Shown: piece after piece, positions 1,225 through 63,335 of the stretch
How the letters are laid out: each line of letters opens with the position of its first letter
Numbering within the stretch: the first letter of the stretch is position 1
Source of the DNA: Candidatus Liptonbacteria bacterium
GTDB lineage: Bacteria > Patescibacteriota > Minisyncoccia > UBA6257 > 2-01-FULL-56-20
Length of the DNA: 64,000 nucleotides
Direction of reading: 5' to 3'
Assembly (NCBI GenBank): GCA_016867315.1
Contig: VGJV01000002.1
Span: forward strand, 51,386 to 115,385
Made by a program: the position numbers and the translations under genes
The notes under the pieces: generated by a model
Seen by the model: only the letters and a program-made list of their open reading frames with translations
What the model was told of the DNA's origin: nothing
Database searches by the model: none

Positions 1225-1351
1225 GAATTTGAATGACTGTAAAGAACACATAGCTGCAGGGCTTCTCGCAGTCCCGCCAAGGCGGGAAGAGCAGAGCTGC
1301 TGCGGCTGCAGCCGCAGACAGCGTCCCTGCAATATGTGTTCGAACAGTCCA

Positions 1352-4107: not shown

Positions 4108-4214
4108 AAATAAAATTTCTAATTTCTAATTGACCTAATTTCTAAAGAAAATTGTTGCGCCTTATTCATTGGGAGTTGGGATTTATTTAGGAATTAGAAA
4201 TTCTGAATTAGAAA
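4108..4214. repeat. AT-rich inverted-repeat element (aatttctaatttctaatt ... aattagaaattctgaattagaaatt) between ftsX and ftsE
   Basis: Arms of about 30 nt at 4113-4145 and 4178-4212 flank a 30-nt GC-richer centre. Confidence 0.45.
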
Positions 4215-4898
4215 TTACACAAGGATATATTTGCCTTTAACCTCGTCCCGGAACACCCGCCCTCGATCGAGCGTAATCACACGCTTTTCGAGATTATTGA
4301 TGATTTCCTTGTCGTGGGTGGCAAGTATTACCGTCGTCCCTAATTGATTGATTTTCTCCAATAATTTAATGATTTCCGCAGTATGAAATGGATCAAGATT
4401 CCCCGTCGGCTCATCCGCAATAATGACTTCCGGCCGGTGGATCATCGCCCGCGCGATTGCCACCCGCTGCTTCTCCCCTCCTGAAAGCTCATGCGGAAAA
4501 TTCTTGCTCTTCTCGGCCAGCCCTACCATATCCAAAACCTGCGGTACCAACTCATTAATCTCCCGCTGAGCCCGCCCCTCTACCTCGAGCGCAAATGCGA
4601 CGTTCTCAAATGCAGTTTTAGTGGGAAGCAATCGGAAATCCTGGAACACCACTCCGATATGGCGACGAAATTGGGGTAATTCGCTGGAACCCAATTTATT
4701 GACTTCATATTGACCAAAAAACACCCGGCCGCGGCTGGGTTTCTCTTCTCCAATTAAAAGCTTAATAAGCGTAGACTTTCCGGCTCCCGATCTCCCCGCA
4801 AGCGAAACGAACTCTCCCTGTTTTATCTCTAACGTAACATCCTCAAGCGCTGGACTTAAGTGATCATAAATTTTAGCTACCCCTTGAAAAAAAATCAT
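4215..4898 (-). CDS. ftsE: Cell division ATP-binding protein FtsE
   Basis: Walker [13 protein letters not shown] signature [14 protein letters not shown], Walker [12 protein letters not shown]. Trimmed to the [11 protein letters not shown] start. Confidence 0.85.
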
Positions 4899-12285: not shown

Positions 12286-12426
12286 TGTTATCCATACTAC
12301 CAGCTTTTTAGGCCCTTACAAAATGGAACCGTCTCTTCTTCCAACATAAATGAAGTCCTGTTTCTGCAAGGATTCTCGAACCACTTTCCCAACTAAGTGA
12401 AATCCTGCTTTTCTCGAACGTGGTCC

Positions 12427-12522
12427 AATATGCGAAGTCCTGTTTCGTGCAGAGATTCTCGGAGTGCGTCGGCACGAGAGCATAGCGGTCGCGAAAGCCC
12501 TTCGCGAACCGCGTCCCCGCAA
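12427..12522. repeat. GC-rich structured repeat, copy 1 (conserved core plus a covarying closing helix). Partial copies lie at 12342-12372 and 12387-12410
   Basis: Core GATTCTCGGAGTGCGTCGGCACGAGAGCATAGCGGTCGCGAAAGCCCTTCGCGAACCGCGTCCCC. Flanked by gtcctgtttcgtgc ... gcaagaaataggac (14-bp helix). Lies between the greA stop and the lysS start. Confidence 0.6.
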
Positions 12523-12542
12523 GAAATAGGACAAGCCCCTTT

Positions 12543-13010
12543 TTATTCGATTTTTATAATCTCAAACGTAGATTTTCCTGAAGGAGTAAGCACGGTCACC
12601 TCATCTCCCTTCTCGTGTCCCATAAACGCACGTCCAAGGGGAGATTCGTCGGAAATTTTGCCCTCTTCCGGCTTCGCGTCATAAGGTCCTACAATAGTAT
12701 ATTTAGTTTCTTTGCCGTTCTTCTTCACCGTCACCGCACACCCAACGCGCACCACTCCTCCCGTTCCTCCCGCTTCCTCTTCAATAATGACTGCCTTTTT
12801 CAAAAGTTCCTCGAGTTCGAAAATGCGGTTTTCGATAAGATTCTGCTCTTCACGAGCTTCAGCATATTCAGCGTTCTCGGAAAGATCTCCGTATTCCTTA
12901 GCCCGCTTTAATTTATCGGCAATATCCGCACGACCTTCCCCTTTAAGAGTTTCGAGTTCCTTCTTCAACTCCTCGTGCCGCTCTTTCGAAAGGTGATATT
13001 GGTTCGGCAT
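12543..13010 (-). CDS. greA: Transcription elongation factor GreA
   Basis: N-terminal coiled coil (ELKKELETLKGEGRADIADKLKRAKEYGDLSENAEY) and a C-terminal FKBP-like domain. Trimmed to the MPNQYHL start. Confidence 0.85.
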   Translation of the reverse strand: MPNQYHLSKERHEELKKELETLKGEGRADIADKLKRAKEYGDLSENAEYAEAREEQNLIENRIFELEELLKKAVIIEEEAGGTGGVVRVGCAVTVKKNGKETKYTIVGPYDAKPEEGKISDESPLGRAFMGHEKGDEVTVLTPSGKSTFEIIKIE

Positions 13011-15876: not shown

Positions 15877-17148
15877 TTATTGGATCCCTTCGTATTCACG
15901 CACCGTAAGCTGCGAATCAATCTGCCTCATGGTCTCCAAAGCCACCGCCACTACAATAAGCAACGCCGTACCGCTTACGGTAAGCACCGCTACCCCCGTG
16001 ATCGCCTGCACAATGATAGGCAAAATCGCAATGAGCCCCAAAAACACGGCCCCGAAGAAAGTCACACGATTCACGGTTTTTTTGAAGAATTCTTCAGTCA
16101 TTTCTCCCGGTCGGATTCCCGGAATAAACCCTCCTCCTCGCTGTAAATTCTTGGCTACCTCCGATGGATTGAATGTGATCGAAGTGTAGAAATAGGTGAA
16201 TGCGAACACAAGCGAGAAGTAGATGATCCCGTAGAACATTCGGTTATTAAGCACACTCGTCACGATCTCATTAAGTTTGACTCCCACCCCGGGAGAAATG
16301 GCCGTCATCACCTGCGCGATGAATTGCGGGAAAAGGAATACTGAGATTGCGAAGATCAAAGGAATCATTCCTGCTTGGTTTACTTTAAGCGGCAGGTAGC
16401 TCGATACTCCGCCGAACATCTTCATGCCCCGCACACGTCGAGCGTACGCCACAGGCACTTTCCGCTCCCCCTCGTTCAAATACACGACTCCAAAGATCAC
16501 AAGAAGCAACACTAAAAGGAATCCGATGTAGGTAGCCAATTTCGCGGGCGTGTAGGAAAGGAGCAGCAAACGCACATTCGCCGGCAAGCCCGCCACAATT
16601 CCTGCAAGGATGATAAGCGAAATGCCATTCCCCACTTTTTGCTCAGTGATAAGTTCTCCGAGCCACACTGCGATCATTGCTCCCGCGGTGATCACCACCA
16701 CAGTCGTAAGCAAAAGCCAAGCATCCGGTCGATCGAGAACTCCCGAACTCATAAGGAGTGCAAGGAATCCGTACGCCTGAAGCACTGCAAGCGGCACGGT
16801 GAGCATTCGGGAATATTGATTAAATTTCGCACGTCCTTGGGCTCCTTCCTCGTAATAAAGTTGCTTGAACTTCGGGAAAATGAGCGTCAAAAGCTGCATG
16901 ATAATTGTCGCCGTGATGTACGGTCCTACCCCCAACATCATGACCGACAAACTTTCTAATCCTCCTCCTGAAAAAAAGTTCAAAAAACCCAAGAGCTGGT
17001 TGGAGTTGAAATATTGCTGGAGTCTGTCCGCATCCACCCCGGGAATAGGAATAGCGGCAAAGAAACGGTATGCCACAAGTACCCCTAATACGATAAGGAT
17101 TTTGTTGCGGATTTCAGGGATTCTAAAAATTTGGAGGATTCGATTCAT
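15877..17148 (-). CDS. secY: Preprotein translocase subunit SecY
   Basis: 10 TM segments and SecY signature regions. Trimmed to MNRILQIFRIPEIRNKIL, because the longer ORF would overlap the upstream repeat element. Confidence 0.9.
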   Translation of the reverse strand: MNRILQIFRIPEIRNKILIVLGVLVAYRFFAAIPIPGVDADRLQQYFNSNQLLGFLNFFSGGGLESLSVMMLGVGPYITATIIMQLLTLIFPKFKQLYYEEGAQGRAKFNQYSRMLTVPLAVLQAYGFLALLMSSGVLDRPDAWLLLTTVVVITAGAMIAVWLGELITEQKVGNGISLIILAGIVAGLPANVRLLLLSYTPAKLATYIGFLLVLLLVIFGVVYLNEGERKVPVAYARRVRGMKMFGGVSSYLPLKVNQAGMIPLIFAISVFLFPQFIAQVMTAISPGVGVKLNEIVTSVLNNRMFYGIIYFSLVFAFTYFYTSITFNPSEVAKNLQRGGGFIPGIRPGEMTEEFFKKTVNRVTFFGAVFLGLIAILPIIVQAITGVAVLTVSGTALLIVVAVALETMRQIDSQLTVREYEGIQ

Positions 17149-17171
17149 AACGTTAAGTAGTAAAAAGAGAC

Positions 17172-17272
17172 GTCGGCTTCGGGTGGAAAAGGGATTCTCG
17201 GAGCGCGGCGGCGCGAGAGCATAGCGGCTGCGAAAGCCCATCGCGGACCGCGTCCCTTTGCCATACGAAGCC
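17172..17272. repeat. GC-rich structured repeat, copy 2 (between rplO and secY)
   Basis: Core GGGATTCTCGGAGCGCGGCGGCGCGAGAGCATAGCGGCTGCGAAAGCCCATCGCGGACCGCGTCCC. Flanked by cggcttcgggtggaaaaggga ... tccctttgccatacgaagccg (21-bp helix, 19 pairs). Confidence 0.6.
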
Positions 17273-17291
17273 GCGCCGGAGCATACTCATA

Positions 17292-26081: not shown

Positions 26082-26360
26082 CTACTTTTTGGGTTTCTTG
26101 TATACCTTATCCCGCAACGCAATGCGATGAATCGTAACAATATGTGATTCGTGTTCCATCTCGTAAACCACTCGCCAATCTCCTACACGCAGCTTAAAAT
26201 ATCCGTGCCACTCGTGGCCAAGCGCCTCATGAACAACCGAAGGAAAATTCTCGCGAAACCACTCCAATTTGCCTAAAATCCTTCTCTGTACTGGCGCGTC
26301 CAAAGAGCGTAAATCTTCCTCTCCGGTGAGAGTGAAAGTAAATTTCCAGCCCGAGGACAT
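26082..26360 (-). CDS. Type II toxin, RelE/ParE family
   Basis: 92 aa. FKLRVGDWRVVYEMEHESHIVTIHRIALRDKVY is typical of the RelE/ParE fold (plasmid stabilisation system protein). Confidence 0.75.
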   Translation of the reverse strand: MSSGWKFTFTLTGEEDLRSLDAPVQRRILGKLEWFRENFPSVVHEALGHEWHGYFKLRVGDWRVVYEMEHESHIVTIHRIALRDKVYKKPKK

Positions 26361-26368
26361 TCTATAAA

Positions 26369-26569
26369 CTAGAGCGAACTCACTACCTCCTCAAAAGTAC
26401 GGATCCTGCCTTGCTTTTTTTCCGCAGCAGATTTCTTGAGTCTCTTTACAAACGCGGAGCGAATCTCAAGTCCTTTGTCAGAATCGATAAGCAATTCGCG
26501 CAATGCACGCTGCACCGCCCGCTCCACCACTGCTTCGATTTTTTTTTCTTCAATAGTAATGCGAGCCAT
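26369..26569 (-). CDS. Putative antitoxin (ribbon-helix-helix or Phd-like), partner of the RelE/ParE toxin
   Basis: 66 aa, helical and charged. Stop lies 9 nt upstream of the toxin start. Confidence 0.6.
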   Translation of the reverse strand: MARITIEEKKIEAVVERAVQRALRELLIDSDKGLEIRSAFVKRLKKSAAEKKQGRIRTFEEVVSSL

Positions 26570-26980
26570 GCTTTCACTCTACCTCCTAAAAATGGAAAGT
26601 CAATGAAGCTTGGTCTGAAGCGTACGCGTATTCCCATGTTTCAAGAGCCCTCGATACGATTCGAGCGTTGCCGATTTTCCATTATTCGCCACATTCTTGA
26701 ACATCCGCCGCTTCGTCGCCGTGCGGAGTACGCGATGGTCGGGAAAATGGAAGGTGTTCATACTTTTTTTTGCCACGGGGACTTGGACGCACACTCGCTC
26801 TATGCGAGGGCGTTGCATCACTTATTGATTTTGCCGCAGCACTCATTCCGCGACTGTCTGCTTCTTCTACATCAATCCGCGACATGAATGCTGGGGCAAA
26901 AAACCTCTCAAAAGATTGGGTAAATCATACCATTTCTCAATAAAAAACGCAAGGATTAAAGGATTAGCCTTGAAAACACA

Positions 26981-27007
26981 AACGCACCCTTTCGAGTGCG
27001 TTTTGTT
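26981..27007. terminator. Intrinsic terminator-like hairpin downstream of rpsJ and the copy-3 repeat
   Basis: aacgcac-cctttcga-gtgcgtt stem-loop followed by ttttgtt. On the minus strand it is followed by gtgttttc. Confidence 0.55.
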
Positions 27008-27020
27008 ACTAATCCAATAA

Positions 27021-27055
27021 GCGAAGTCCTGTTCCAGATGGGGATTCTCGAACCC
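27021..27055. repeat. Partial copy of the GC-rich structured repeat (5' helix strand plus the first 9 nt of the core)
   Basis: gcgaagtcctgttccagatggggattctcgaaccc is the same truncation point (ctcgaacc) as the two partial copies at 12.34-12.41 kb. Confidence 0.5.
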
Positions 27056-27099
27056 AATAAAAGGAACGGGGGCATATTCTCTTACAGCTAACAAAGCGA

Positions 27100-27195
27100 A
27101 ATCCTGCCGCTTGTGGGGATTGTCGGAGCGCGGCGGCGCGAGACATAGCGCTGCGAGAGCCCCTCGCAGATAGCGTCCCCACAAGTGACAGGATG
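27100..27195. repeat. GC-rich structured repeat, copy 3 (3' of rpsJ)
   Basis: Core GGGATTGTCGGAGCGCGGCGGCGCGAGACATAGCGCTGCGAGAGCCCCTCGCAGATAGCGTCCCC. Flanked by atcctgccgcttgtgggga ... tccccacaagtgacaggat (19-bp helix, one mismatch, one G-U). Confidence 0.6.
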
Positions 27196-27203
27196 AGCGC
27201 CTC

Positions 27204-34706: not shown

Positions 34707-34802
34707 TTGGAAGAAAGAAATTACAGAAAAGAAAATAGAATTAAAGAAAAGAAACGTCCCGCAATTGCCAATTCTGGCGACTGCGGGACGTTTTGATTTT
34801 GC

Positions 34803-37664
34803 CTATCTCCCTCCCAAAAGATTCACGAACGGCGCAATGATTGTTCCTAAAAGTGAGGGCTGATTTCTCGAAGACTGCGGAGGTGGCGGAGGAGGTTGCG
34901 ACTCTCCACTAGGAGGGGGAGGAGGTGGAGGTGTTCCCTGACTCGGCTGAGGGTACGTGCCCTGCGGAGGCTGAGGATACATTCCTTGCGGAGGGTACTG
35001 CATTCCTCCCGGCGGCTTAGGATACTGACCATCCATTCCCGGCTGGAAACCCGCCGGAGGATTCATAGGATATTGCCCCGGCTGTCCTGGAGTCCCTGGT
35101 TGACCCGGAAATCCCCCCTGTGGAGGCATGCCTGGAGCTCCCGTCGGGAACTGCCCCTGCATCTGTCGGTTCACTTCTCCCTGAAACCGCTCTTGATACT
35201 GTTTCTGAAACTCCGCGTTGTACTGCTGATTAAATTGCTGATTGAACTGCTGCCTATGCTGCTCGTTAAATTGCTCCGGCCGTTGCCCACTCTCCACCGG
35301 AGGCCCGATCGGGCGCGGAGGAACTCTCCCCGGCTCTATGCGGCCGCCTTCCTGTCCAGGAGCACCGCCGTGTTGATTTTTTCCTTGCTCCATCTTGCCG
35401 TAACACTCTCCAATAGCTTTAGCGACTTCGGGAGAAGGCTCACTTCCTCGGCGCAGTTTTTCCAAATCCGCGGCCTCCCCCAGCATAGTCTTCACGCACT
35501 GGAGTACTGGCTCTGGTGCAGGACCCCTGCCCTGCACAGCACCTTGTCCTTGCGGATTCCCCGGAGGTCCGAACCGCTGGTCAGGTTTGCCTCCAGGAAA
35601 ATTCCCTTGTCCCCCTCGGGAACCTGGCAAACTCTCAAAACACTCCTGCATGGCTTTTCCTATAGCTCCTCCCCGGCCACCTCCCGCACGCAATGCTTCC
35701 CCACCTACTTCCCCTCCTATTTTTCCTTTCACGCAGGAAAGCACTTCAGGAGGTATCCCATGCTGAGGCCCCCCTTTAGTTCCCTGCTCTCCCGCGAAAC
35801 TTCCTTGCCCAGGTCTCTGCATTTTCCCGAAACACTCCCGAATGGCCTGTCCCAGAGACCCCCGGTCCGATTCCGCACCGCGCAGCTTTTCCTCAGTAAC
35901 CTCACTACCTGTTTTTTCTTTTACGCACGAGAGCACCTCATGAGGAATTCCTCCCCGCCCGAATGCCTGCCCTTCTCCAGACGGAAATCCTTGCGACCCG
36001 GGGCCACTTGGAAACCCTCCTTGCTCGCCTCGCTCATACCTAGCAGGCGAAGCGGGCCCGCCCTCTCCTCCTGCGGGAGGACCGAAGTGTTCTTGAGGCC
36101 GGAACTGCTCGAAACAACCCCTCATAACCGAAGGGTCTAATCCTTCGACAAGTTCCCCATTTTGAAGCTTTTCGAAATTCGCACCAAGCTTCTCCTTGAA
36201 ACAACTCGCCACTTGAGGTGGAGCCGTACGAAGGAACCGCTGAAAGTCGTGTGGTTGAGGCCTTCCGAATCCTCGACCAGCACCCCCTTGTCCCGGCTGT
36301 CCAGGGCCGCCTGGCTGCCCTCGGAATTCTCCTCCCGGACCACCCGGTCCCCCGGGCTCTCCGAAAAATCCTCCTTTTTCAAATTGCACACTTTGGAAAC
36401 ACACTCGGAAGGTATCCGCGATCTCGGGCGTAGGCGCTTCTTCTCCTTTCTTTATCTTCTCAAATTTATCCCCGAGTTTTTCCTGAATACAAGCGATCAC
36501 CCCCTTCGGGGCATCCTTGAACATATCCTGCGGACCTTTGCGATGTCCGAACTTCTCAAAACACCCCCCCACGCGCTCTCCAATTTCCGGCCCAGGAGTA
36601 AGTTTCCCAGATTCAATATCTTCAATCACATTTGGGCCCACCACCGATTTCAAACAGGCTGCCACTTCTGGAGGAGCATGCTCAAGGCCCGCACGCACCC
36701 GCACAAAGCCCTCTTTGGCCCGCCGCACTTCTTCTTTGCTGATAAATCCATGTTCTTCCGCAAATTTAAAACAGGCTTCTCGATTTGCCGGATCATTACA
36801 GTACGCCTCACACGCCCGGGGAGAGCTACAACCTCCCGGCCCCTTGCCTCCAGTTTTGCGAATCCGTTCTGCTTCGTCTCGGGACATAAACCCAGCTTTT
36901 TCTGCAAACGCCACGCATTCTTCTCCATGCGCCGGCCCATTGCAATATGCCTCACACGCTTCCTTGGATTTACAGCCGCCAGGAGTTTCCCCTTTTTTCG
37001 CAAGCTCCATCACCTTCTGGAACTGCTCAGGAGAAAGATCGTCATCTCCGTGCTGCGGCCCAGGCCCTCCCGGCCGCGCCTGTCCTTTGGCCTGAATAAT
37101 CCCCGCCTTCTTTGCAAACTCAAAACACTCTTCCGCATGGGAAAAATCACTGCAATATGTTTTACATTCCTGCTCGGATTTACATCCTCCAGGCGTAGTA
37201 CCTCCCGCCTTGATATGCTTTAATACCCTCTCCCCCTGTTCCAAATCCCTGCTTTTAATCCCCTGTTTCTTCGCAAAACTCACACATTCTTCTAAATGAG
37301 TGATATCGCTGCAGTACGCTTCACATTCCCCGGGGCTTTTACACCCACCCGGTCCCCCCTTCGCCACCGCCTGGGAGAATTTTTTTGCCCGTTGAGCCTC
37401 TTCTTTATTCATCAATCCGCTCTTCTCCGCAAACGCCACGCACGCTTCTACATTCGCGGGATTTTCACAGTATTGTTTGCAGGCCTGTTTATCCCCGCAG
37501 TTCCCCAATTCCGGGATGGGAAAAATAATACCGCTCGCTTGAATCTGCGCGTCCGTGGGGCCTTCCGGCACATTCGATTCTTGGGCATACACTGCCCCGA
37601 AAAATCCCGCCCATACAAACGCGAACCCCACCAGACCAAGCCCAATGCGCAATTTGATATTCAT
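34803..37664 (-). CDS. Large secreted modular protein with cysteine-motif repeats and Gly/Pro/Gln low-complexity regions; putative surface/adhesin protein
   Basis: Signal peptide (MNIKLRIGLGLVGFAFVWAGFFGAVYA). Five modules of CX5CX3CX8C (e.g. CKSPGECEAYCSDITHLEECVSFAKK), six modules of about 45 aa with two Cys (PPEVLSCVKEKxG...CFExx), GGPGGPGG/QPG linkers, a Q/N/F-rich then P-rich tail, and a hydrophobic C-terminus. Confidence 0.75.
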   Translation of the reverse strand: MNIKLRIGLGLVGFAFVWAGFFGAVYAQESNVPEGPTDAQIQASGIIFPIPELGNCGDKQACKQYCENPANVEACVAFAEKSGLMNKEEAQRAKKFSQAVAKGGPGGCKSPGECEAYCSDITHLEECVSFAKKQGIKSRDLEQGERVLKHIKAGGTTPGGCKSEQECKTYCSDFSHAEECFEFAKKAGIIQAKGQARPGGPGPQHGDDDLSPEQFQKVMELAKKGETPGGCKSKEACEAYCNGPAHGEECVAFAEKAGFMSRDEAERIRKTGGKGPGGCSSPRACEAYCNDPANREACFKFAEEHGFISKEEVRRAKEGFVRVRAGLEHAPPEVAACLKSVVGPNVIEDIESGKLTPGPEIGERVGGCFEKFGHRKGPQDMFKDAPKGVIACIQEKLGDKFEKIKKGEEAPTPEIADTFRVCFQSVQFEKGGFFGEPGGPGGPGGEFRGQPGGPGQPGQGGAGRGFGRPQPHDFQRFLRTAPPQVASCFKEKLGANFEKLQNGELVEGLDPSVMRGCFEQFRPQEHFGPPAGGEGGPASPARYERGEQGGFPSGPGSQGFPSGEGQAFGRGGIPHEVLSCVKEKTGSEVTEEKLRGAESDRGSLGQAIRECFGKMQRPGQGSFAGEQGTKGGPQHGIPPEVLSCVKGKIGGEVGGEALRAGGGRGGAIGKAMQECFESLPGSRGGQGNFPGGKPDQRFGPPGNPQGQGAVQGRGPAPEPVLQCVKTMLGEAADLEKLRRGSEPSPEVAKAIGECYGKMEQGKNQHGGAPGQEGGRIEPGRVPPRPIGPPVESGQRPEQFNEQHRQQFNQQFNQQYNAEFQKQYQERFQGEVNRQMQGQFPTGAPGMPPQGGFPGQPGTPGQPGQYPMNPPAGFQPGMDGQYPKPPGGMQYPPQGMYPQPPQGTYPQPSQGTPPPPPPPSGESQPPPPPPQSSRNQPSLLGTIIAPFVNLLGGR

Positions 37665-37685: not shown

Positions 37686-37958
37686 TTACTCAAAGGGATT
37701 CTTGTATGCATCCTTTATAGGATTCGGCGCCGGCGCTAATTCCGGCACTTTGTCTTGAAGCGGATTCTGCGCCTTCTCCAAAATTGAAGCTCCTAAACTA
37801 GAAGTAGATACCGCTTCAGTCTGAGCAGCAGAAGGAGCTGCAGGAGCCTGCCCCGTTGAAGGAGAAGGAGAAACATCTGCAGAGAGCACATACCACACTG
37901 CGACCGCTGCCGCGATAATGAGTATGGCCCCCACCACAATTATTTCTTTCTTATTCAC
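37686..37958 (-). CDS. Small membrane-anchored Ala/Pro/Ser-rich protein (GTG start inferred)
   Basis: TM helix (IIVVGAILIIAAAVAVWYVL) then a low-complexity tail. The track ORF extends upstream over repeat copy 4, so it was trimmed to the GTG at 37958. Its stop is 21 nt before the large-protein start. Confidence 0.35.
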   Translation of the reverse strand: MNKKEIIVVGAILIIAAAVAVWYVLSADVSPSPSTGQAPAAPSAAQTEAVSTSSLGASILEKAQNPLQDKVPELAPAPNPIKDAYKNPFE

Positions 37959-38053
37959 GTATTTTACATTGTAACAAACTCTCTCACCTGCAATTGTGGA
38001 TATCTCCGTTATCAATAAAAATATGAAGGGCGCGTAGTCTCGTTCGCGCTTCG

Positions 38054-38143
38054 ATATGTCCGGCGGGGATTCTCGGAGCGCGACGGCGTGAGAGTATAGC
38101 GGCCGCGAGAGCCCCGCGCGGACCGCGTCCCCGCAGGACATAT
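38054..38143. repeat. GC-rich structured repeat, copy 4 (between the Kelch gene and the small membrane protein gene)
   Basis: Core GGGATTCTCGGAGCGCGACGGCGTGAGAGTATAGCGGCCGCGAGAGCCCCGCGCGGACCGCGTCCCC. Flanked by atatgtccggcgggga ... tccccgcaggacatat (16-bp helix, one mismatch). Confidence 0.6.
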
Positions 38144-38157
38144 GGGAAGCAACAGAA

Positions 38158-39276
38158 CTACTTAGCAAACGACGAATACCACACCTCGTTATCCCAGCCC
38201 CAATCATTCCGCATTCCTCCGGAAATCCACATCCGATCATGAAACACCACCGCGCCATGGTCTTCTCTTCCAAGCCACGAGGGGTCTCGATCGGTTTTTT
38301 CCCAAGTAACCCCATCTTTCGTAAACCATACATCATTCACTCCGCGAGATTCCGGATCATTCAAACGCCCCAAACTCCAAAGCGCGCCCTCAAAAGAAAG
38401 AAGTGCATGCCCCTGCCGTTCAGCCCAAGGCGGAGTATTCGTGAGTAATCTCCACGCACTTCCATTCTCGGAAACCCACACATCGCGGAACGTGCGCCCC
38501 GCAAGGTCCATACCTCCAGTAAGATATAGCCTATCATTAAACACAGCGACTGCATGATCCCAGCGGGGAATCCATTCTGCTTTGCCAGTTTCCTCCGTCC
38601 AATACACCCCATCCGCCGAAGACCACACATCGCTAAGAGTGCGATCTCCGTACCGCACTCCTCCGATAAGCCAAATTTTGTCGCGCCATACAAGGAGCGT
38701 ATGTCCCTCGCGAGGGATCCAGGGCGCCGCAGAAACCATCTGCTCCCATTGCCCCCCATCCTCGGTAACCCATATATCGTTTTTATATCCTACCTCAGGC
38801 CCCCACCCACCCATCACCCAAAGTTTTCCCCTGAATTCCACTGCCTGAATCGAACGCCGTTTTCCCCAAGGAGCGTGATCTAAAACTTTTTCCCATGTAA
38901 GTCCCGTCTTAGAAGTCCATACGTCATCAAAATACGGCGCTTCCCAATATCGCACATGCTCACCCGCGGCATCCCGAGTAACCAACCCATTGCCGTTGAG
39001 TCCTCCCATCACCCATAAAGCATCTTTGAATACGACAAACGCATGCGAATCCCGCGCCTCCCACATTGGAGATTGAGGCGCCCGATACCACTCGAGCGTA
39101 GGAAGCAAAGGCTGAGGTTCGGGCGGCAAAGGAAGAAGCGCAGGAGCAAATGCCTGTGGCAAAAGCGCCGGTTCATAAATCCCAAGTTCTTTTAAAACTC
39201 CTTGTCGCCAAAATCCAAAAACGATAAGTATCGCGCCTAGGCCTATTCCGATGGCCACCGCCTCATGGTGTCTCAT
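38158..39276 (-). CDS. Membrane-anchored Kelch-repeat beta-propeller protein
   Basis: N-terminal TM helix (AVAIGIGLGAILIVFGFW) then six or more Kelch-like repeats (...WVMGG..., ...IWLIGG..., ...LYLTGG..., ...MWISGG... with a recurring DVW). Trimmed to the MRHHEA start. Confidence 0.7.
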   Translation of the reverse strand: MRHHEAVAIGIGLGAILIVFGFWRQGVLKELGIYEPALLPQAFAPALLPLPPEPQPLLPTLEWYRAPQSPMWEARDSHAFVVFKDALWVMGGLNGNGLVTRDAAGEHVRYWEAPYFDDVWTSKTGLTWEKVLDHAPWGKRRSIQAVEFRGKLWVMGGWGPEVGYKNDIWVTEDGGQWEQMVSAAPWIPREGHTLLVWRDKIWLIGGVRYGDRTLSDVWSSADGVYWTEETGKAEWIPRWDHAVAVFNDRLYLTGGMDLAGRTFRDVWVSENGSAWRLLTNTPPWAERQGHALLSFEGALWSLGRLNDPESRGVNDVWFTKDGVTWEKTDRDPSWLGREDHGAVVFHDRMWISGGMRNDWGWDNEVWYSSFAK

Positions 39277-39283
39277 ATGAAAT

Positions 39284-41083
39284 TTAATTTTGCCCCATCC
39301 AATCATAAGAAGTATCAAGCCACGCGAGGAGCTTCTTAGCCTCTCCAAAACGATCTTCGGACTCGAGAAGGACTCCAATAATATACCCCTGCCCCTTTGG
39401 ACTCTCTGCCGCGAAGATAAAAGCTTGTCCTGCCCGCGGCGTCTCTCCGGTTTTGCCGGCAAAAACTTCGAAAGGAGCATTCGAAGAATTACTCAGTAAT
39501 GCGTTGGTAGTACGAACGCGATACGTATTGCCACGCGTGCTCCGTACTCGCGTGTCAGGTGTTCCTAATATAGTGCGAAGCGAGGGATGCACCTCGAGCA
39601 CCTCGCGGAAGAGGGCGACAAGCTCGCGGGGCGCAGCTCGATTCAGCGAACTGTCTTTTGCACCATCAAGTCCGGTCACATTAGAAATCGCTACGGCGCT
39701 AAGCCCCAACCTTTGAGCCTCTTCTTTCATAAGCTCGATAAACTTTTCATTCCCTATAGCGTCCGCAAGCGCCCGCGCCGCCGGATTCGATGACTCTATA
39801 AGAAGCAACGAAAGCATCTCTTCTATGGAAATAGCTTCTCCCGCTTCAAGCCGAGCCTGCCCCTCCTTCACCGCTTCCCGAGCAGCCGACAAAGAAACGG
39901 TGATGAGTGTTCCTGGCGGGAAAAGTTTCTCCGCTACAATAGCCGTAAAAAGTTTAGTGATACTCGCGATAGCGCGCGGCACTCGAGACTCCTTTTCCAT
40001 AAGAATCTTGGGCTCGCCTTCCCATGGTATATACACTGCGAGTGCCCCTTGAGCGGAAAGTTCTAACCCGCTGGCTGGACCACGAAATCGGGGATAGCGC
40101 TCATCTCCATGCAAGGCAAGATATTCCGCGGTTCCCACGTTGCCCTCTTTGATCCCTTTCGCAATTGCCTCCCCTACAAATCGATAATGCCAAGGCTCAT
40201 GCATATAGGTCGTGATGGTTTCCCGCTCGGGCGGATAAGATTGTACAAATCCAAATTCTGCAGCATGCCTCTCCAACCAACGCCCCTCTTCGGTTTTATG
40301 GAAATTCAAAGGCGTCCCTCTAAACCCTACGGTAAATCCTGTGAGATCTACCGTAGTTCCTAACTGGTGCTCAGAAGCCCCGGGAGGAGCCACGGCGTTG
40401 CGTGCGCGCTCTCCCTCAACTGCGAGCCAATACTCAAAAAGAGCTTTTTGCACCTCTGCCGAGCGGAAACCGGAACTCACTCCCAACTGAATATTTTCTT
40501 TTTTGGCTGCCTCGAGCATTCGCCTGAGAGCTCCTGCGGTCTCCTCTCGTAAACAAATAATTCCATTTGTCCAAATTCCCTTCGCTTCAAGCACCACAAG
40601 ATCCGCAGGCGCATACGCGTACGGCAAGGAATGCTCCTTGTCTACGCGATACAAAGAAAAATCCGGATATGCTCCTGAAGGTTTGGGACACACTACGTCA
40701 AAATACAGTCTATTTATGTGCTCTCGAGTTTCGGCATCAAATGTTCCCGTCTCCGGTAAATTTTCTTCTTTCTGCAAAGCACGCACTGCGGCCTGCGTCC
40801 GGTCGCCGTAAAAACCGGAAACATCTTTTGCATTCAAAAAGTTTTGCTGCGCAAGTGTCCGCTGCAGCAATGTCACATCTGCACCTCGAATTCCCTTTCC
40901 CAAATCCCGAGTAAAACCAGCTCGAGCCCGCCACTCCCGCGCGGCATTCACTTCGAGCCGAAGCAACGCCGCCACCTGCGACTCGGAAATTTCCTCCTCA
41001 ATAACCGCCTTATGCACGAGAAGTCCGCTAAGGATTACCGTAATCCCTACCGCCCCTCCGATCCACATAAACCATCGACTCAT
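39284..41083 (-). CDS. Multidomain cell-wall enzyme: peptidoglycan-binding domain, M15 (VanY-like) D-Ala-D-Ala carboxypeptidase, and S11 serine DD-carboxypeptidase (PBP5-like)
   Basis: TM anchor. PG_binding_1-like segment (DVTLLQRTLAQQNFL...GFYGDRTQAAVRALQ). VanY-like SGFRSAEVQ ... EHQLGTTVD. Serine peptidase SITK (SxxK) and SSN motifs. Trimmed to the MSRWFMW start. Confidence 0.7.
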   Translation of the reverse strand: MSRWFMWIGGAVGITVILSGLLVHKAVIEEEISESQVAALLRLEVNAAREWRARAGFTRDLGKGIRGADVTLLQRTLAQQNFLNAKDVSGFYGDRTQAAVRALQKEENLPETGTFDAETREHINRLYFDVVCPKPSGAYPDFSLYRVDKEHSLPYAYAPADLVVLEAKGIWTNGIICLREETAGALRRMLEAAKKENIQLGVSSGFRSAEVQKALFEYWLAVEGERARNAVAPPGASEHQLGTTVDLTGFTVGFRGTPLNFHKTEEGRWLERHAAEFGFVQSYPPERETITTYMHEPWHYRFVGEAIAKGIKEGNVGTAEYLALHGDERYPRFRGPASGLELSAQGALAVYIPWEGEPKILMEKESRVPRAIASITKLFTAIVAEKLFPPGTLITVSLSAAREAVKEGQARLEAGEAISIEEMLSLLLIESSNPAARALADAIGNEKFIELMKEEAQRLGLSAVAISNVTGLDGAKDSSLNRAAPRELVALFREVLEVHPSLRTILGTPDTRVRSTRGNTYRVRTTNALLSNSSNAPFEVFAGKTGETPRAGQAFIFAAESPKGQGYIIGVLLESEDRFGEAKKLLAWLDTSYDWMGQN

Positions 41084-41302
41084 ATGAAAATAAGAGTACA
41101 CGACAAGGAAGCTCCTCGCCAGGAGTTTTTGCCAATTGAAGAGAGTTATGGTATACTTCCGCGGTAAGTGTTCTCGGAGGTTTTCTGAACCCAAGACACC
41201 TTGAGTGTTGTAAGGCGAGGAACCAGAAGAGAGAGGGGGTCTCGAGCAATTTGCTCTTAATTAATAAGACTCCAGGTCGCCTTACAGCCTATACGAAGAA
41301 AA

Positions 41303-43336: not shown

Positions 43337-43999
43337 TTATATCTTCTCTGCGTTTTCTACCCGGAAGGTTCCGATCTGCGTCCGGCGCAAACTCCAAAGC
43401 GTCGCCGGCACCCCTACACGCTTTCCAATCTCTTCCGCCAAAGAACGGATATACGTTCCGCTTGCGACTTCTGTCTCAAACTTCAGAACTACCCCCTCTC
43501 CTTCCTGGCAAATTCCTTGAAATGTAATTCGAATCACTTCCATTTCTTTTTCGGGAGGAGTAAATTCCTCCCTTTGTCGTGCTTTTGCATACAAACGCTT
43601 CCCACCCACCTTAATCGCCGAATATTTTGGTACCGGCAACATAATCTTTCCCACCATGCTTTTTAAAACTCCCTCCGAGCTTTCTTTTAGAAATTCGAAA
43701 TTAGTAATGAGTAATTTCTCGAGGACCTTCCCTTCCCTATCTCCCGTGTCTGTGCGCATTCCAAGCATTACCTCTGCCTCGTAGACTTTTGGCAACTTCA
43801 GATATTCTTGTAATTTTTTTGTACCCTCCCCCACCGCCACAATCATGAGTCCCGTGGCCAGTGGGTCGAGCGTGCCCGCATGCCCCATCTTGGGAAAAGG
43901 CGCCGAATGGCCATTTTCTCTAAACTTTCGCCGCAGTCTTCGGATCACATCAAACGACGTGATCCCGGAAGGCTTGTCTATAAGCAAAATGTTGTGCAT
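43337..43999 (-). CDS. truB: tRNA pseudouridine(55) synthase TruB
   Basis: [14 protein letters not shown] ... [14 protein letters not shown] catalytic Asp motif. Confidence 0.85.
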
Positions 44000-47233: not shown

Positions 47234-47345
47234 TTTCTAATTACTAATTCCTAAAAAATACTCAAATCCCAAATTCCAAAGGTATCCGTTCGGATTTAGA
47301 AATTGGAGTTTGTTTAGAAATTAGATATTAGGAATTAGGATTTAT
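47231..47345. repeat. AT-rich inverted-repeat element (taatttctaattactaattcctaa ... ttagaaattagatattaggaattagga) between convergent rmuC and ftsZ
   Basis: Inner atccgttcggat palindrome. Same aatttctaatt/aattagaaatt motif family as at 4.1 kb and 31.0 kb. Confidence 0.45.
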
Positions 47346-55606: not shown

Positions 55607-56019
55607 AATACAAGGCTTACCTGCCCCGTGGAAGATGCGACGGAAGCAATCACTTGCACCTTTCTTGTGTGAAACGAGATAGTAGCAGTGGAAAGAATGC
55701 TTACAAGGCCTGTAGCAGGAGAGTTCTGGGTCACCGTAACCGTCGCGTTGTCATTTCCTAACGGCACATTGTACCCTGTGGTATTCGAGAAATCTTTATT
55801 GCGAAGCAATTGAAAATATCCATCGTTCGCCCCCGCCTTGGCCAATCCCAATGCTCGTTGAGCGGCTACGTACCCAAAACTCGAATTTACGAAGCTCGAA
55901 GTAAGAAATCCAAGAGTAACACCCACGAGAATCACAATGCTTCCCACGAGAAACACGAAGGAAAGTGCCGCCTGCCCCTTACGAGAAAATAGAAAATAGA
56001 AAATAGAAAATAGAGACAT
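55588..56019 (-). CDS. Pilin-like (pseudopilin) protein with a prepilin-type N-terminal hydrophobic segment and no Glu5
   Basis: MSLFSIFYFLFSRKG|QAALSFVFLVGSIVILVGV. Leader encoded by the (ttctatttt)n repeat. Confidence 0.6.
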   Translation of the reverse strand: MSLFSIFYFLFSRKGQAALSFVFLVGSIVILVGVTLGFLTSSFVNSSFGYVAAQRALGLAKAGANDGYFQLLRNKDFSNTTGYNVPLGNDNATVTVTQNSPATGLVSILSTATISFHTRKVQVIASVASSTGQVSLVLWKEVQ

Positions 56020-56968: not shown

Positions 56969-57630
56969 TGAAATTGAATTTGGATAGAGCCGGTGCTCGT
57001 CGTGTAATAAATTTTTGTAGAAGTAGAAAACTTGCTATTAGTGCTTGTAACGGGGGTATCTTGGCCGGGGCCTCCAAACCAATCTGTTTGGCTGTAGATA
57101 TAACTAGTACGAGATCGAGTGAGATATGTGGAAAGAGTATTGGTAGCGCTTTGCGGCCAGCGGTACACGACGGTAACCCTCTTCGTAGAAGGATCGCTAT
57201 TTCCTCCGCTTGTTACTATAAGATTCCCCGCATCCCGAAAAACATCATCTACATAAAAATAGCGCGTATAGGTCGTAGTTCCCACCTGAAGATTTTCACT
57301 GCCAGACACCGAAGAAAAAGGGGAGGTGCTCGTCGTGAGGTAATATCGATTTGCCGAAGTGGTACTCAAGGCCAGAAGACCATTCCAATCGCCTTGAGAC
57401 CATACGCTCACATTATCCAAAAGTTCTTTCCCAAGGCTTGTACCTACTTGCGACTTAAGTGTCTGCGTATTGCTTCGAAGGACGGGGGCAATAATAGTGG
57501 CTCCTGCTCCAATCATGATGACTCCCACGAGAAGGGCGATCAAAACCTCGATAAGAGACTGCCCTCCACGGGCAGAAAGTAGAAAATAGAAAGTAGAAAA
57601 TAAATTCTTATGTTGATTCATGCCATCCAT
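56965..57630 (-). CDS. Pilin-like protein (prepilin-type N-terminus, Glu5 present)
   Basis: ...LLSARGG|QSLIEVLIALLVGVIMIGAGATII. Unusually long hydrophobic leader (NLFSTFYFLL). Confidence 0.65.
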   Translation of the reverse strand: MDGMNQHKNLFSTFYFLLSARGGQSLIEVLIALLVGVIMIGAGATIIAPVLRSNTQTLKSQVGTSLGKELLDNVSVWSQGDWNGLLALSTTSANRYYLTTSTSPFSSVSGSENLQVGTTTYTRYFYVDDVFRDAGNLIVTSGGNSDPSTKRVTVVYRWPQSATNTLSTYLTRSRTSYIYSQTDWFGGPGQDTPVTSTNSKFSTSTKIYYTTSTGSIQIQFQ

Positions 57631-63174: not shown

Positions 63175-63247
63175 GTGGGTGTGGAAGGAATCGAACCTTC
63201 GACCTCTGTCTTATCAGGACAGCGTTCTACCACTGAACTACACACCC
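63175..63247 (-). tRNA. tRNA-Ile (anticodon GAT)
   Basis: GGGTGTGTAGTTCAGTGGTAGAACGCTGTCCTGATAAGACAGAGGTCGAAGGTTCGATTCCTTCCACACCCACC. Anticodon loop CTGATAA. CCA is not fully encoded. Confidence 0.85.
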
Positions 63248-63299
63248 GTATAAAATTTCGTTTTCTCCGAGCGAACCATTTGTATCAAAATACTTTGAT

Positions 63300-63335
63300 A
63301 TCAGGACAGCGTTCTACCACTGAACTACACACCCG
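63300..63335 (-). pseudogene. Partial duplicate of tRNA-Ile (positions 1-36, from the 5' end through the anticodon), followed on the minus strand by a tatcaaa-atac-tttgata hairpin
   Basis: 36-nt exact identity to 63213-63248. Diverges immediately 3' of the anticodon GAT. Confidence 0.6.

Follow-up and report, generated by a model that had tools for sequence, protein, structure and literature searches.

The 64,000-nt stretch of Candidatus Liptonbacteria contig VGJV01000002.1 analysed here (hereafter the window) carries a dispersed palindromic repeat, one unit of which, copy 4, lies between a gene for a Kelch beta-propeller protein and a gene for a small anchored protein. Copy 4 is a non-coding palindromic repeat. 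Its family is new but of a familiar kind, and it is not a dedicated regulatory RNA. We consider it likely that it is the insertion of a small non-autonomous mobile element, similar to transposable elements of the miniature inverted-repeat type (MITEs) or Rickettsia palindromic elements (RPEs), from a family circulating in Patescibacteria, also known as the Candidate Phyla Radiation (CPR). Units are 110-170 nt long, and the only open reading frames (ORFs) that cross them belong to host genes or arise as artefacts of read-through. Terminal inverted repeats are present in copy 4 (38034-38161), at the ends of the copies in the Niyogibacteria genome JACOYI01 and in contig L096 (arms of ~65 bp). The element occurs in multiple copies, and its presence or absence differs between related genomes. 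These features fit the definition (<500 bp, no transposase) and behaviour of MITEs (PMC10969869).

Copies of the element in the window

The initial annotation had placed a structured repeat at 38054-38143, and repeat search, a covariance model and comparison of its fold with shuffled sequence all confirm that it is real and far beyond chance. Repeat search returned direct repeats at 12449-12536, 17188-17275 and 38063-38150 (70-81% identical) and a fourth at ~27150-27183. The covariance model, built from these four window copies and used to score every window position with filters off, yielded five full copies and no more, each of them on the minus strand. The fifth is divergent and was absent from the earlier count. 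Its inverted repeat spans 1232-1353 and begins within a TAA stop codon. The full and partial units are as follows.

12430..12540, minus strand: copy 1, between greA and lysS
17169..17279, minus strand: copy 2, between rplO (L15) and secY
27094..27202, minus strand: copy 3, immediately 3' of the rpsJ (S10) stop codon
38044..38154, minus strand: copy 4, covariance-model match, after the Kelch gene
1236..1350, minus strand: copy 5, divergent, filling the spacer after a 260-aa gene
12340-12382 and 12389-12419, minus strand: two 5'-truncated partial units matching the element 3' half, downstream of copy 1
27013-27054, minus strand: one 5'-truncated partial unit matching the element 3' half, downstream of copy 3

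The full copies start 0-19 nt 3' of a stop codon. The total is five full and three truncated units in 64 kb, and five full units in the 85-kb contig, the covariance model having found no further copy in the ~19 kb beyond the window. A second model, made from 20 sequences, gave no additional or more divergent copies in ~350 kb of CPR sequence. For the partial units that follow copy 1, homology was established by alignment, tandem-repeat search having returned nothing.

Two program-made reading frames, those of secY (15877-17241) and of the gene downstream of copy 5 (724-1479), run upstream into the repeat. The true length of SecY is 423 aa, with a start near 17148. For the gene downstream of copy 5, the public gene call starts inside the 3' arm of the element (window ~1251).

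Extent and fold of copy 4

Local alignment of the 5' arm to the reverse complement of the 3' arm defines copy 4 as an imperfect inverted repeat of 128 nt at 38034-38161 on the minus strand. Its arms, GTAGTTCTGTTGCTTCCCATATGTCCTGCGGGGA ... TCCCCGCCGGACATATCGAAGCGCGAACGAGACTAC, flank a 58-nt asymmetric centre made of two hairpins, and the head that they enclose is a conserved three-way junction. In the consensus fold, an outer stem (P1 and its extension) is joined by P2, with a bulged U after four pairs, and by P3, UCUC-hairpin-UCC-GAGA. The parts are listed below.

38034..38161, minus strand: full inverted-repeat element, termini GTAGTTCTGTT...AACGAGACTAC, from arm alignment and fold
38054..38143, minus strand: best-paired central 90 nt, the interval of the initial annotation, ATATGTCC-P1-head-P1'-GGACATAT
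38128..38134, minus strand: P1 5' strand GCGGGGA, pairing with 38063-38069 (TCCCCGC), from the RNAalifold consensus and pair counts
38099..38126, minus strand: P2 hairpin of the head, GCGG-U-CCGCG...CGCGG-CCGC, with the U bulged after 4 bp
38071..38093, minus strand: P3 hairpin of the head, UCUC-ACGCCGUCGCGC-UCC-GAGA, the segment most conserved in sequence

The Kelch stop codon is the 5' TAG of copy 4, at 38158-38160. The earlier statement that the element sits 15 nt after this stop is correct for the 90-nt core only; the full inverted repeat includes the stop itself. The minus strand of 38040-38160 folds to -58.3 kcal/mol (z = -3.5), and none of 200 shuffles was as stable. Because copy 4 is a palindrome it folds well on both strands, the plus strand of the same interval reaching a comparable -64.3 kcal/mol.

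A known RNA family was considered and rejected, since Rfam gave no relevant match. At the gathering threshold the whole window contained four tRNAs only, at E<=10 the copy 4 locus gave chance miRNA and lncRNA matches only, and nine related loci gave nothing relevant at an E-value threshold. Hammerhead, twister, HDV and K-turn signatures were not seen on inspection by eye rather than by a formal test.

Pairing and covariation

Pairing statistics were calculated on 20 distinct copies. Stem cells are paired in 93.6% of cases, compared with 31-47% when the partners are slid, and no shuffle reaches the observed values. Both sides have changed in 28 of the 39 stem pairs. In the arms, such covariation is shown by any inverted-repeat element. 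An A·C mismatch is a G·U pair on the opposite strand, and the stem mismatches over 755 cells comprise 13 G·U and 20 A·C, with no G·U excess. Copy 1 alone had suggested a sense strand from its G·U pairs; the 20-sequence count has no such asymmetry, and the assignment was dropped. Thus, a strand signature of a structured RNA was found neither in the mismatches, where G·U is not favoured over A·C, nor in orientation, which in other genomes is mixed. P3 appears extremely conserved in part through ascertainment, since it served as the search pattern; copy 5 has a different P3 that is still paired.

Copies in other genomes

A P3-derived pattern was scanned over a species-representative genome collection. 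It gave 91 matches, of which the true ones are only in CPR genomes and the others are chance matches in GC-rich genomes. Ten loci of Niyogibacteria JACOYI01 match the strict pattern, as does one in JACOVJ01, another Niyogibacteria genome. A Yanofskybacteria genome has two true loci, and a genome labelled Saccharibacteria has one partial copy. Five further contigs came from a metagenome scan, all of them confirmed by the covariance model. The distribution of the family is patchy across Liptonbacteria, Niyogibacteria, Yanofskybacteria and four other metagenome contigs. For the window, SecY is 100% identical to a protein annotated as Candidatus Liptonbacteria, and ENA holds a near-identical contig of 85.6 kb. 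A scan of viral contigs with the element pattern gave 0 matches, and a phage origin was rejected on this basis.

Nine Niyogibacteria copies (eight in JACOYI01, one in JACOVJ01) were compared and differ little across ~165 nt, being near-identical. At the level of sequence, the similarity of the JACOYI01 copies points to a recent burst. Outer inverted repeats are TAGAACTCATTTCAAAACC...GGTTTTGAAATGAGTTCTA and the ends are TAGAACTC...GAGTTCTA, with TA at each end in eight of the nine. Relative to Pfam-validated neighbours in Niyogibacteria and metagenome contigs, four copies are sense, following a GT2 gene, a histidine kinase gene, an RNase J gene and a GalT-like gene, and three are antisense, beside ftsW, an SBP gene and trmD. 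In four cases (ftsW, SBP, trmD and GT2) the terminal TAG/CTA coincides by position with the stop codon of the neighbour, confirmed base by base for ftsW only. Reuse of a stop codon is seen in both orientations, and the inverted repeats of window copies 4 and 5 also begin inside a stop codon.

One copy lies within a gene. At 1110-1217 of contig L092 it is antisense to an intact valS (Pfam tRNA-synt_1, E 4e-132), lies inside that gene and keeps its reading frame, with a length of 108 nt or 36 aa. The insert residues, GRETASEGILGARRRESKTHGQQAMTACPDEGVSVP, fall between HRIPVWY and DEDTLDTWFSS, in a surface-loop region, and the segment has 53 residues compared with 27 in Thermus thermophilus ValRS, making it ~26 longer. 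This is the only intragenic copy seen, and in-frame insertion into an intact gene is RPE-like behaviour. Placement on the same strand between co-directional genes, proposed earlier as common to the loci, is consequently not a property of the family: copies are sense or antisense in Niyogibacteria and in metagenome contigs, and one is within valS. Nor is there a relation between orientation and local GC skew outside the window (seven positive, nine negative), and a replication-strand bias was not seen there.

The same head is found within different arm sets, including the perfect arms of L096. In three orthologous contigs (L093, L095 and L080) the element lies in non-coding DNA, with a promoter-like sequence on one side and a bidirectional terminator on the other; the locus also holds a truncated second unit.

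Absence at orthologous sites

Three relatives with SecY 83-86% identical contain no copy in ~57 kb spanning the order-conserved S10...L15-secY-adk-map-GT-greA-lysS, and the Kelch loci of two Liptonbacteria relatives, L110 (JANLHI01) and L111 (JACPLI01), contain none either. The rplO-secY, rpsJ-rplC, greA-lysS and Kelch-small-gene spacers of relatives are all without the element. Because it is absent at these orthologous sites, the insertions at rpsJ, rplO-secY, greA-lysS and the Kelch gene, the four open to comparison, are lineage-specific, and the element is no conserved signal of these operons. For the same reason we rejected a conserved leader or ribosomal-protein autoregulatory site for secY, rpsJ or lysS. 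The positions after the rpsJ and greA stop codons hold plain GC-rich hairpins in the relatives. Same-strain contigs are all 99.97-100% identical to the window and so uninformative on presence or absence at the strain level.

A proposed route of insertion

We propose that the element inserts at a TA dinucleotide by means of a transposase supplied in trans. TA lies at both ends of copy 4 and of eight of the nine young copies, a palindromic TA that is inseparable from the end of the inverted repeat. In tightly packed genomes only insertions that spare neighbouring genes would survive, which would account for copies that begin within or directly behind a stop codon and for the reuse of the terminal TAG or TAA as a stop. 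Copy 4 would have landed at the Kelch stop codon, upstream of a promoter-like motif belonging to the small gene. On transcription of the Kelch gene, the 3' end of the mRNA would carry the element folded as a hairpin of about -58 kcal/mol, which could act there as a protecting or processing structure; a duplex of more than 20 bp would suit RNase III.

Several observations sit poorly with this account. All five full copies and three fragments in the window share one orientation, which has a chance of 1/16 if the five full copies are taken as independent. A target-site duplication is inseparable from a TA-ended repeat and is not evident for copies 1-3. There is no base-precise empty site, the spacers of the relatives not being alignable, and no autonomous insertion sequence with the same ends turned up, a whole-genome search for one not having been made. 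In the loci examined, the element ends occur only as element ends and in one 270-nt element of contig L109. By our own comparison of the alignment, the arms of the window copies are only ~70% identical to one another, yet each copy is ~90% paired. Between lineages the P2 stem is replaced entirely (CCGCGA/UCGCGG, AUUCUUC/GAAGAAU, CCCCGCC/GGCGGGG, AAAAUCC/GGAUUUU, CAUGGCC/GGCCAUG) while the bulged U and a GCU-containing loop are kept. Pairing that persists as sequence changes is not predicted by a simple decaying MITE, and suggests that a single-stranded hairpin is under selection or undergoes templated correction. It is possible that selection on single-stranded RNA or DNA, successive master copies or template-switch correction maintained the pairing. 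Template-switch correction of quasi-palindromes during replication is an established mutational process.

Alternative explanations

Some of the same observations would be expected if the element were a selected cis-acting RNA of polycistronic mRNAs that sets 3' ends, protects upstream cistrons from 3' exonucleases or provides a processing site for RNase III or another enzyme. The five full copies and three fragments of the window are all sense and 0-19 nt after a stop codon, the fold is strong, pairing is retained where both partners have changed, and in P2 covariation between lineages is complete, with the bulged U kept. Relatives also have hairpins after rpsJ and greA, and a terminator (L110) or a compound hairpin (L111) in the Kelch spacer. 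We nevertheless regard this explanation as unlikely. The element is absent at every orthologous site of the closest relatives, its orientation is mixed in other genomes, and one copy is antisense within coding sequence. A·C mismatches are at least as frequent as G·U, and the arms of palindromic DNA covary by construction. Furthermore, no consistent U-tract follows the hairpin, and copy 4 is followed by a promoter-like motif. That the region is translated, either as the 216-aa ORF crossing it or as an N-terminally longer small protein, is scarcely credible. The frame is open across the element, and elsewhere the sequence of valS implies that a family member is translated. However, the ORF has no Pfam match and overlaps the Kelch 3' end out of frame, orthologues of the small protein are 92-97 aa with starts aligned to the GTG at 37958, the upstream spacers of relatives share short non-coding motifs only and no reading frame, and all three sense frames of GC-rich copy 4 are open by composition, by our own reading of the sequence.

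A mobile element might also move as folded single-stranded DNA, in the manner of REPIN/RAYT, IS200/IS605-derived or attC-like elements, with an HUH or tyrosine enzyme recognising hairpins with extrahelical bases. The conservation of P2 in structure and not in sequence, its constant bulged T/U, the 5'-truncated units in the same orientation directly downstream of full copies, and the uniform placement of window copies on the G-rich strand are all consistent with this. We find it very unlikely, given that outside the window orientation does not follow GC skew, that the element has true inverted-repeat ends with TA termini, unlike the ends of IS200/IS605, and that the flanks are core genes in conserved order rather than cassettes. 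Neither a conserved REP signature of the GTAG type nor attC R/L boxes can be seen. A further proposal, which we also consider distinctly improbable if somewhat less so, centres on the head, with its constant bulged U and variable stem in P2, the UCC bulge of P3 and the fixed junction bases. The three-way junction would be a functional single-stranded RNA or DNA module for a structure-specific enzyme, riding on or inserting at the apex of different palindromic carriers across Patescibacteria and kept here in one orientation as post-stop operon punctuation. It would then be a new class of mobile or processing element defined by structure, and not an ordinary transposase-driven MITE.

Gene neighbourhood of copy 4

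All genes around copy 4 are on the minus strand.

39284..41194, minus strand: PG_binding-VanY-Peptidase_S11 carboxypeptidase (Pfam), first gene of the conserved neighbourhood
38158..39276, minus strand: Kelch beta-propeller gene with an N-terminal membrane anchor; ORF to 39480 (Pfam, E 8e-22)
37686..38336, minus strand: 216-aa read-through ORF, an artefact upstream of 37958
37686..37958, minus strand: small anchored protein, 90 aa, GTG start; orthologues 92-97 aa (...TSSLGASILEKAQNPLQ...AYKNPFE*)
34803..37664, minus strand: 953-aa secreted Cys-repeat protein; orthologues of 847-1010 aa at the same position in relatives

The initial annotation had described a cell-surface neighbourhood in which a Kelch propeller gene precedes the element and a small anchored protein precedes the 953-aa secreted protein. 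This description holds. Pfam identifies the Kelch gene, and the order carboxypeptidase, Kelch, small protein, 953-aa protein is kept in L110 and L111, which have the same four genes (Kelch 376-382 aa, small protein 92-97 aa, large protein 847-1010 aa). The Kelch proteins of the window, L110 and L111 end at an identical residue (...VWYSSFAK*). Because Kelch homologues of 372-386 aa cover only 85% of the 440-aa ORF, the true start is probably the Met at 39276 (~372 aa), which would begin the membrane anchor. The 953-aa protein has an N-terminal signal-like segment, four GGCxSxxxCxxYC units, three PPEVxxC units and 32 Cys in total; Pfam has no match for it or for the 216-aa ORF.

The GTG at 37958-37956, 95 nt below the element core as had been proposed, lines up in the two relatives with the ATG that starts the orthologous 92-97-aa proteins, and the small gene is conserved at 90-97 aa. 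The earlier view that the 216-aa ORF is an artefact and the element non-coding is likewise borne out, as the first ~60 codons of that ORF overlap the Kelch 3' end in another frame. Removal of 38035-38158 would fuse the Kelch and small-gene frames, raising the possibility that an insertion had split the Kelch gene. This was rejected, since relatives have a separate small gene and their Kelch proteins stop at the residue where that of the window stops.

Transcription across copy 4

The spacer that separates the element from the GTG is 75 nt long and has just two short motifs kept in three genomes; its remainder does not align.

37968..38003, minus strand: conserved non-coding motifs upstream of the small gene, from the three-genome alignment; putative promoter function
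37995-38003, minus strand: DnaA-box-like ATATCCACA, consensus T(A/T/G)TCCACA
37968-37976, minus strand: extended -10-like TGTTACAAT, 9 nt before the GTG

The second motif, TTTG(T/C)TACA(A/C)T, lies ~20 nt beyond T(A/T/G)TCCACA, and its extended -10-like sequence (TTTGTTACAAT) is 7-9 nt upstream of the small-gene start in the three genomes. The pair is located at ~4120-4165 in L110 and ~7285-7325 in L111. On sequence grounds, this suggests an extended -10 element for a leaderless or near-leaderless separate transcript of the small gene. A simple sigma-70 scan did not call it, the motif being without a canonical -35. Between the Kelch gene and the -10-like motif, L110 has a canonical terminator (GAGCGTCCGCC...GGCGGACGTTTTTGTTTTT) and L111 a compound hairpin. 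The claim that copy 4 lies within a probable polycistronic mRNA is doubtful in light of the conserved motif before the small gene and the terminator after the Kelch gene in one relative; copy 4 is probably not inside such an mRNA. It is better described as part of the Kelch 3' untranslated region (UTR), because the corresponding spacer of the relatives holds the Kelch 3'-end structure. The copy 4 hairpin probably serves as, or replaces, that structure. By analogy with known elements it is a plausible RNase III substrate and may influence decay in the way that ERIC does when it lies at the 3' end of a gene.

The sequence TGTGGATAA also precedes the element in L093, L095, L080 and L008. DnaA boxes are not significantly enriched in the window (16 near-matches compared with 10.4 ± 3.7 expected).

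Comparison with known repeats

ERIC/IRU of enterobacteria and Correia CREE/NEMIS of Neisseria resemble the element in size (~100-170 bp), the lack of an ORF, terminal inverted repeats (TIRs) and many dispersed copies. ERIC and Correia elements also lie mostly in transcribed spacers near gene ends, have TA at their ends and form long hairpins when transcribed (PMC10969869). Correia hairpins are cut by RNase III, and ERIC at gene 3' ends alters RNase E decay (PMC10969869; PMC2649163). The present element differs from both in its Patescibacteria host and the lack of sequence similarity, and neither a site for integration host factor (IHF) nor promoter-forming ends were identified. It has a conserved asymmetric three-way-junction centre and arms that differ between genomes, whereas the usual MITE has a conserved TIR and a variable core.

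RPEs are palindromes of ~100-150 bp in a reduced genome that occur in spacers and in frame within essential genes (PMC10969869), and the 36-aa in-frame copy inside valS is their counterpart here. It is a single intragenic case in an unrelated lineage and of unrelated sequence, and most copies of the element abut stop codons rather than lie within genes. QMITE2, a MITE of Coxiella burnetii, occurs for the most part in 3' UTRs that follow ORFs, and its transcript is predicted to form a highly stable hairpin (PMC10969869). It has 7-9-bp direct repeats, 23-29-bp TIRs and a 113-145-bp core, whereas the arms of the present element are longer in relation to its core and its ends carry TA alone. REP/BIME and RAYT-mobilised REPINs are similar in being extragenic palindromes downstream of genes that form mRNA 3' hairpins and whose structure is maintained, as described in part in PMC3184786. 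The element differs in having units of 110-170 nt, a patchy occurrence across classes and no RAYT seen (whole genomes were not searched). A REP measures ~20-40 nt and has a tetranucleotide conserved at its 5' end; REPINs are passed on vertically together with a RAYT gene.

Full-text searches of the literature collection consulted found no description of MITEs or dispersed palindromic repeats in CPR genomes, nor of this repeat. CPR genomes are usually called streamlined. This family and at least two others seen in relatives invade their most conserved operons (S10/spc). The palindromic elements reuse stop and start codons at their ends, and one is within valS. The combination of a conserved asymmetric head with variable arms, precise reuse of stop codons, and invasion of ribosomal-protein operons and valS is unusual. 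Being GC-rich and stop-free, such repeats produce false ORFs and wrong starts, as in the 216-aa ORF, the N-terminal extension of secY and possibly the start of the gene downstream of copy 5. They may contribute to assembly breaks, and they provide strain-typing markers. Should the ends of mRNAs indeed be set by the transcript hairpins, the elements would offer a cheap, mobile way of shaping operon expression in regulator-poor organisms.

Other repeats and minor observations

A different palindromic family (ends GAATCCCGTTAGAAATT...AATTTCTAACGGGATGAA) occupies S10/spc spacers in Liptonbacteria relatives, in contigs L108 (1290-1394, 5414-5545, 6389-6527 and 6805-6921) and L109 (1038-1208 and 6331-6443). 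Its ATGA boundaries leave intact both the TGA stop on the upstream side and the ATG start on the downstream side. In L109, a palindrome of 270 nt also lies between adk and map (12546-12812); its ends, GAACTCATTTCAG... (GAACTCATTTCAGCAGTACCTCTCGCCCGC...), match the outer JACOYI01 repeats. Its interior differs from the Niyogibacteria copies, the map start codon lies in its 3' arm, and it has no Rfam match. Small palindromes colonising operon spacers are common in this clade.

Between rpsJ and rplC (window 26082-27002) is a toxin-antitoxin-like pair of 66 aa (26369-26569) and 92 aa (26082-26360, weak ParE_toxin). Together with a terminator-like hairpin at 26973-27002 it splits the S10 operon; the relatives L107 and L109 are without them. 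Many same-strain short-read contigs end at ~26693, which suggests a variable or repeated junction. At 63212-63248 and 63299-63335, 87 nt apart, are identical 37-nt copies of part of the tRNA gene at 63176-63247, and the duplicate may be a remnant of integration or duplication.

Two sets of AT-rich intergenic repeats, both unrelated to the element, were also found in the window: TTTAGAAATT.GAAATTAG... at 4186-4216, 43686-43716 and 47313-47343, and GAAAATAGAAAATAGA at 34710-34739, 55985-56014 and 57575-57604. Contig L107 has a dnaE with an intein domain, and the window dnaE is without one. Within a Niyogibacteria 23S rRNA gene, at L008 6417-6615, is a match to a group I intron that falls below threshold (29 bits, E 8e-4).

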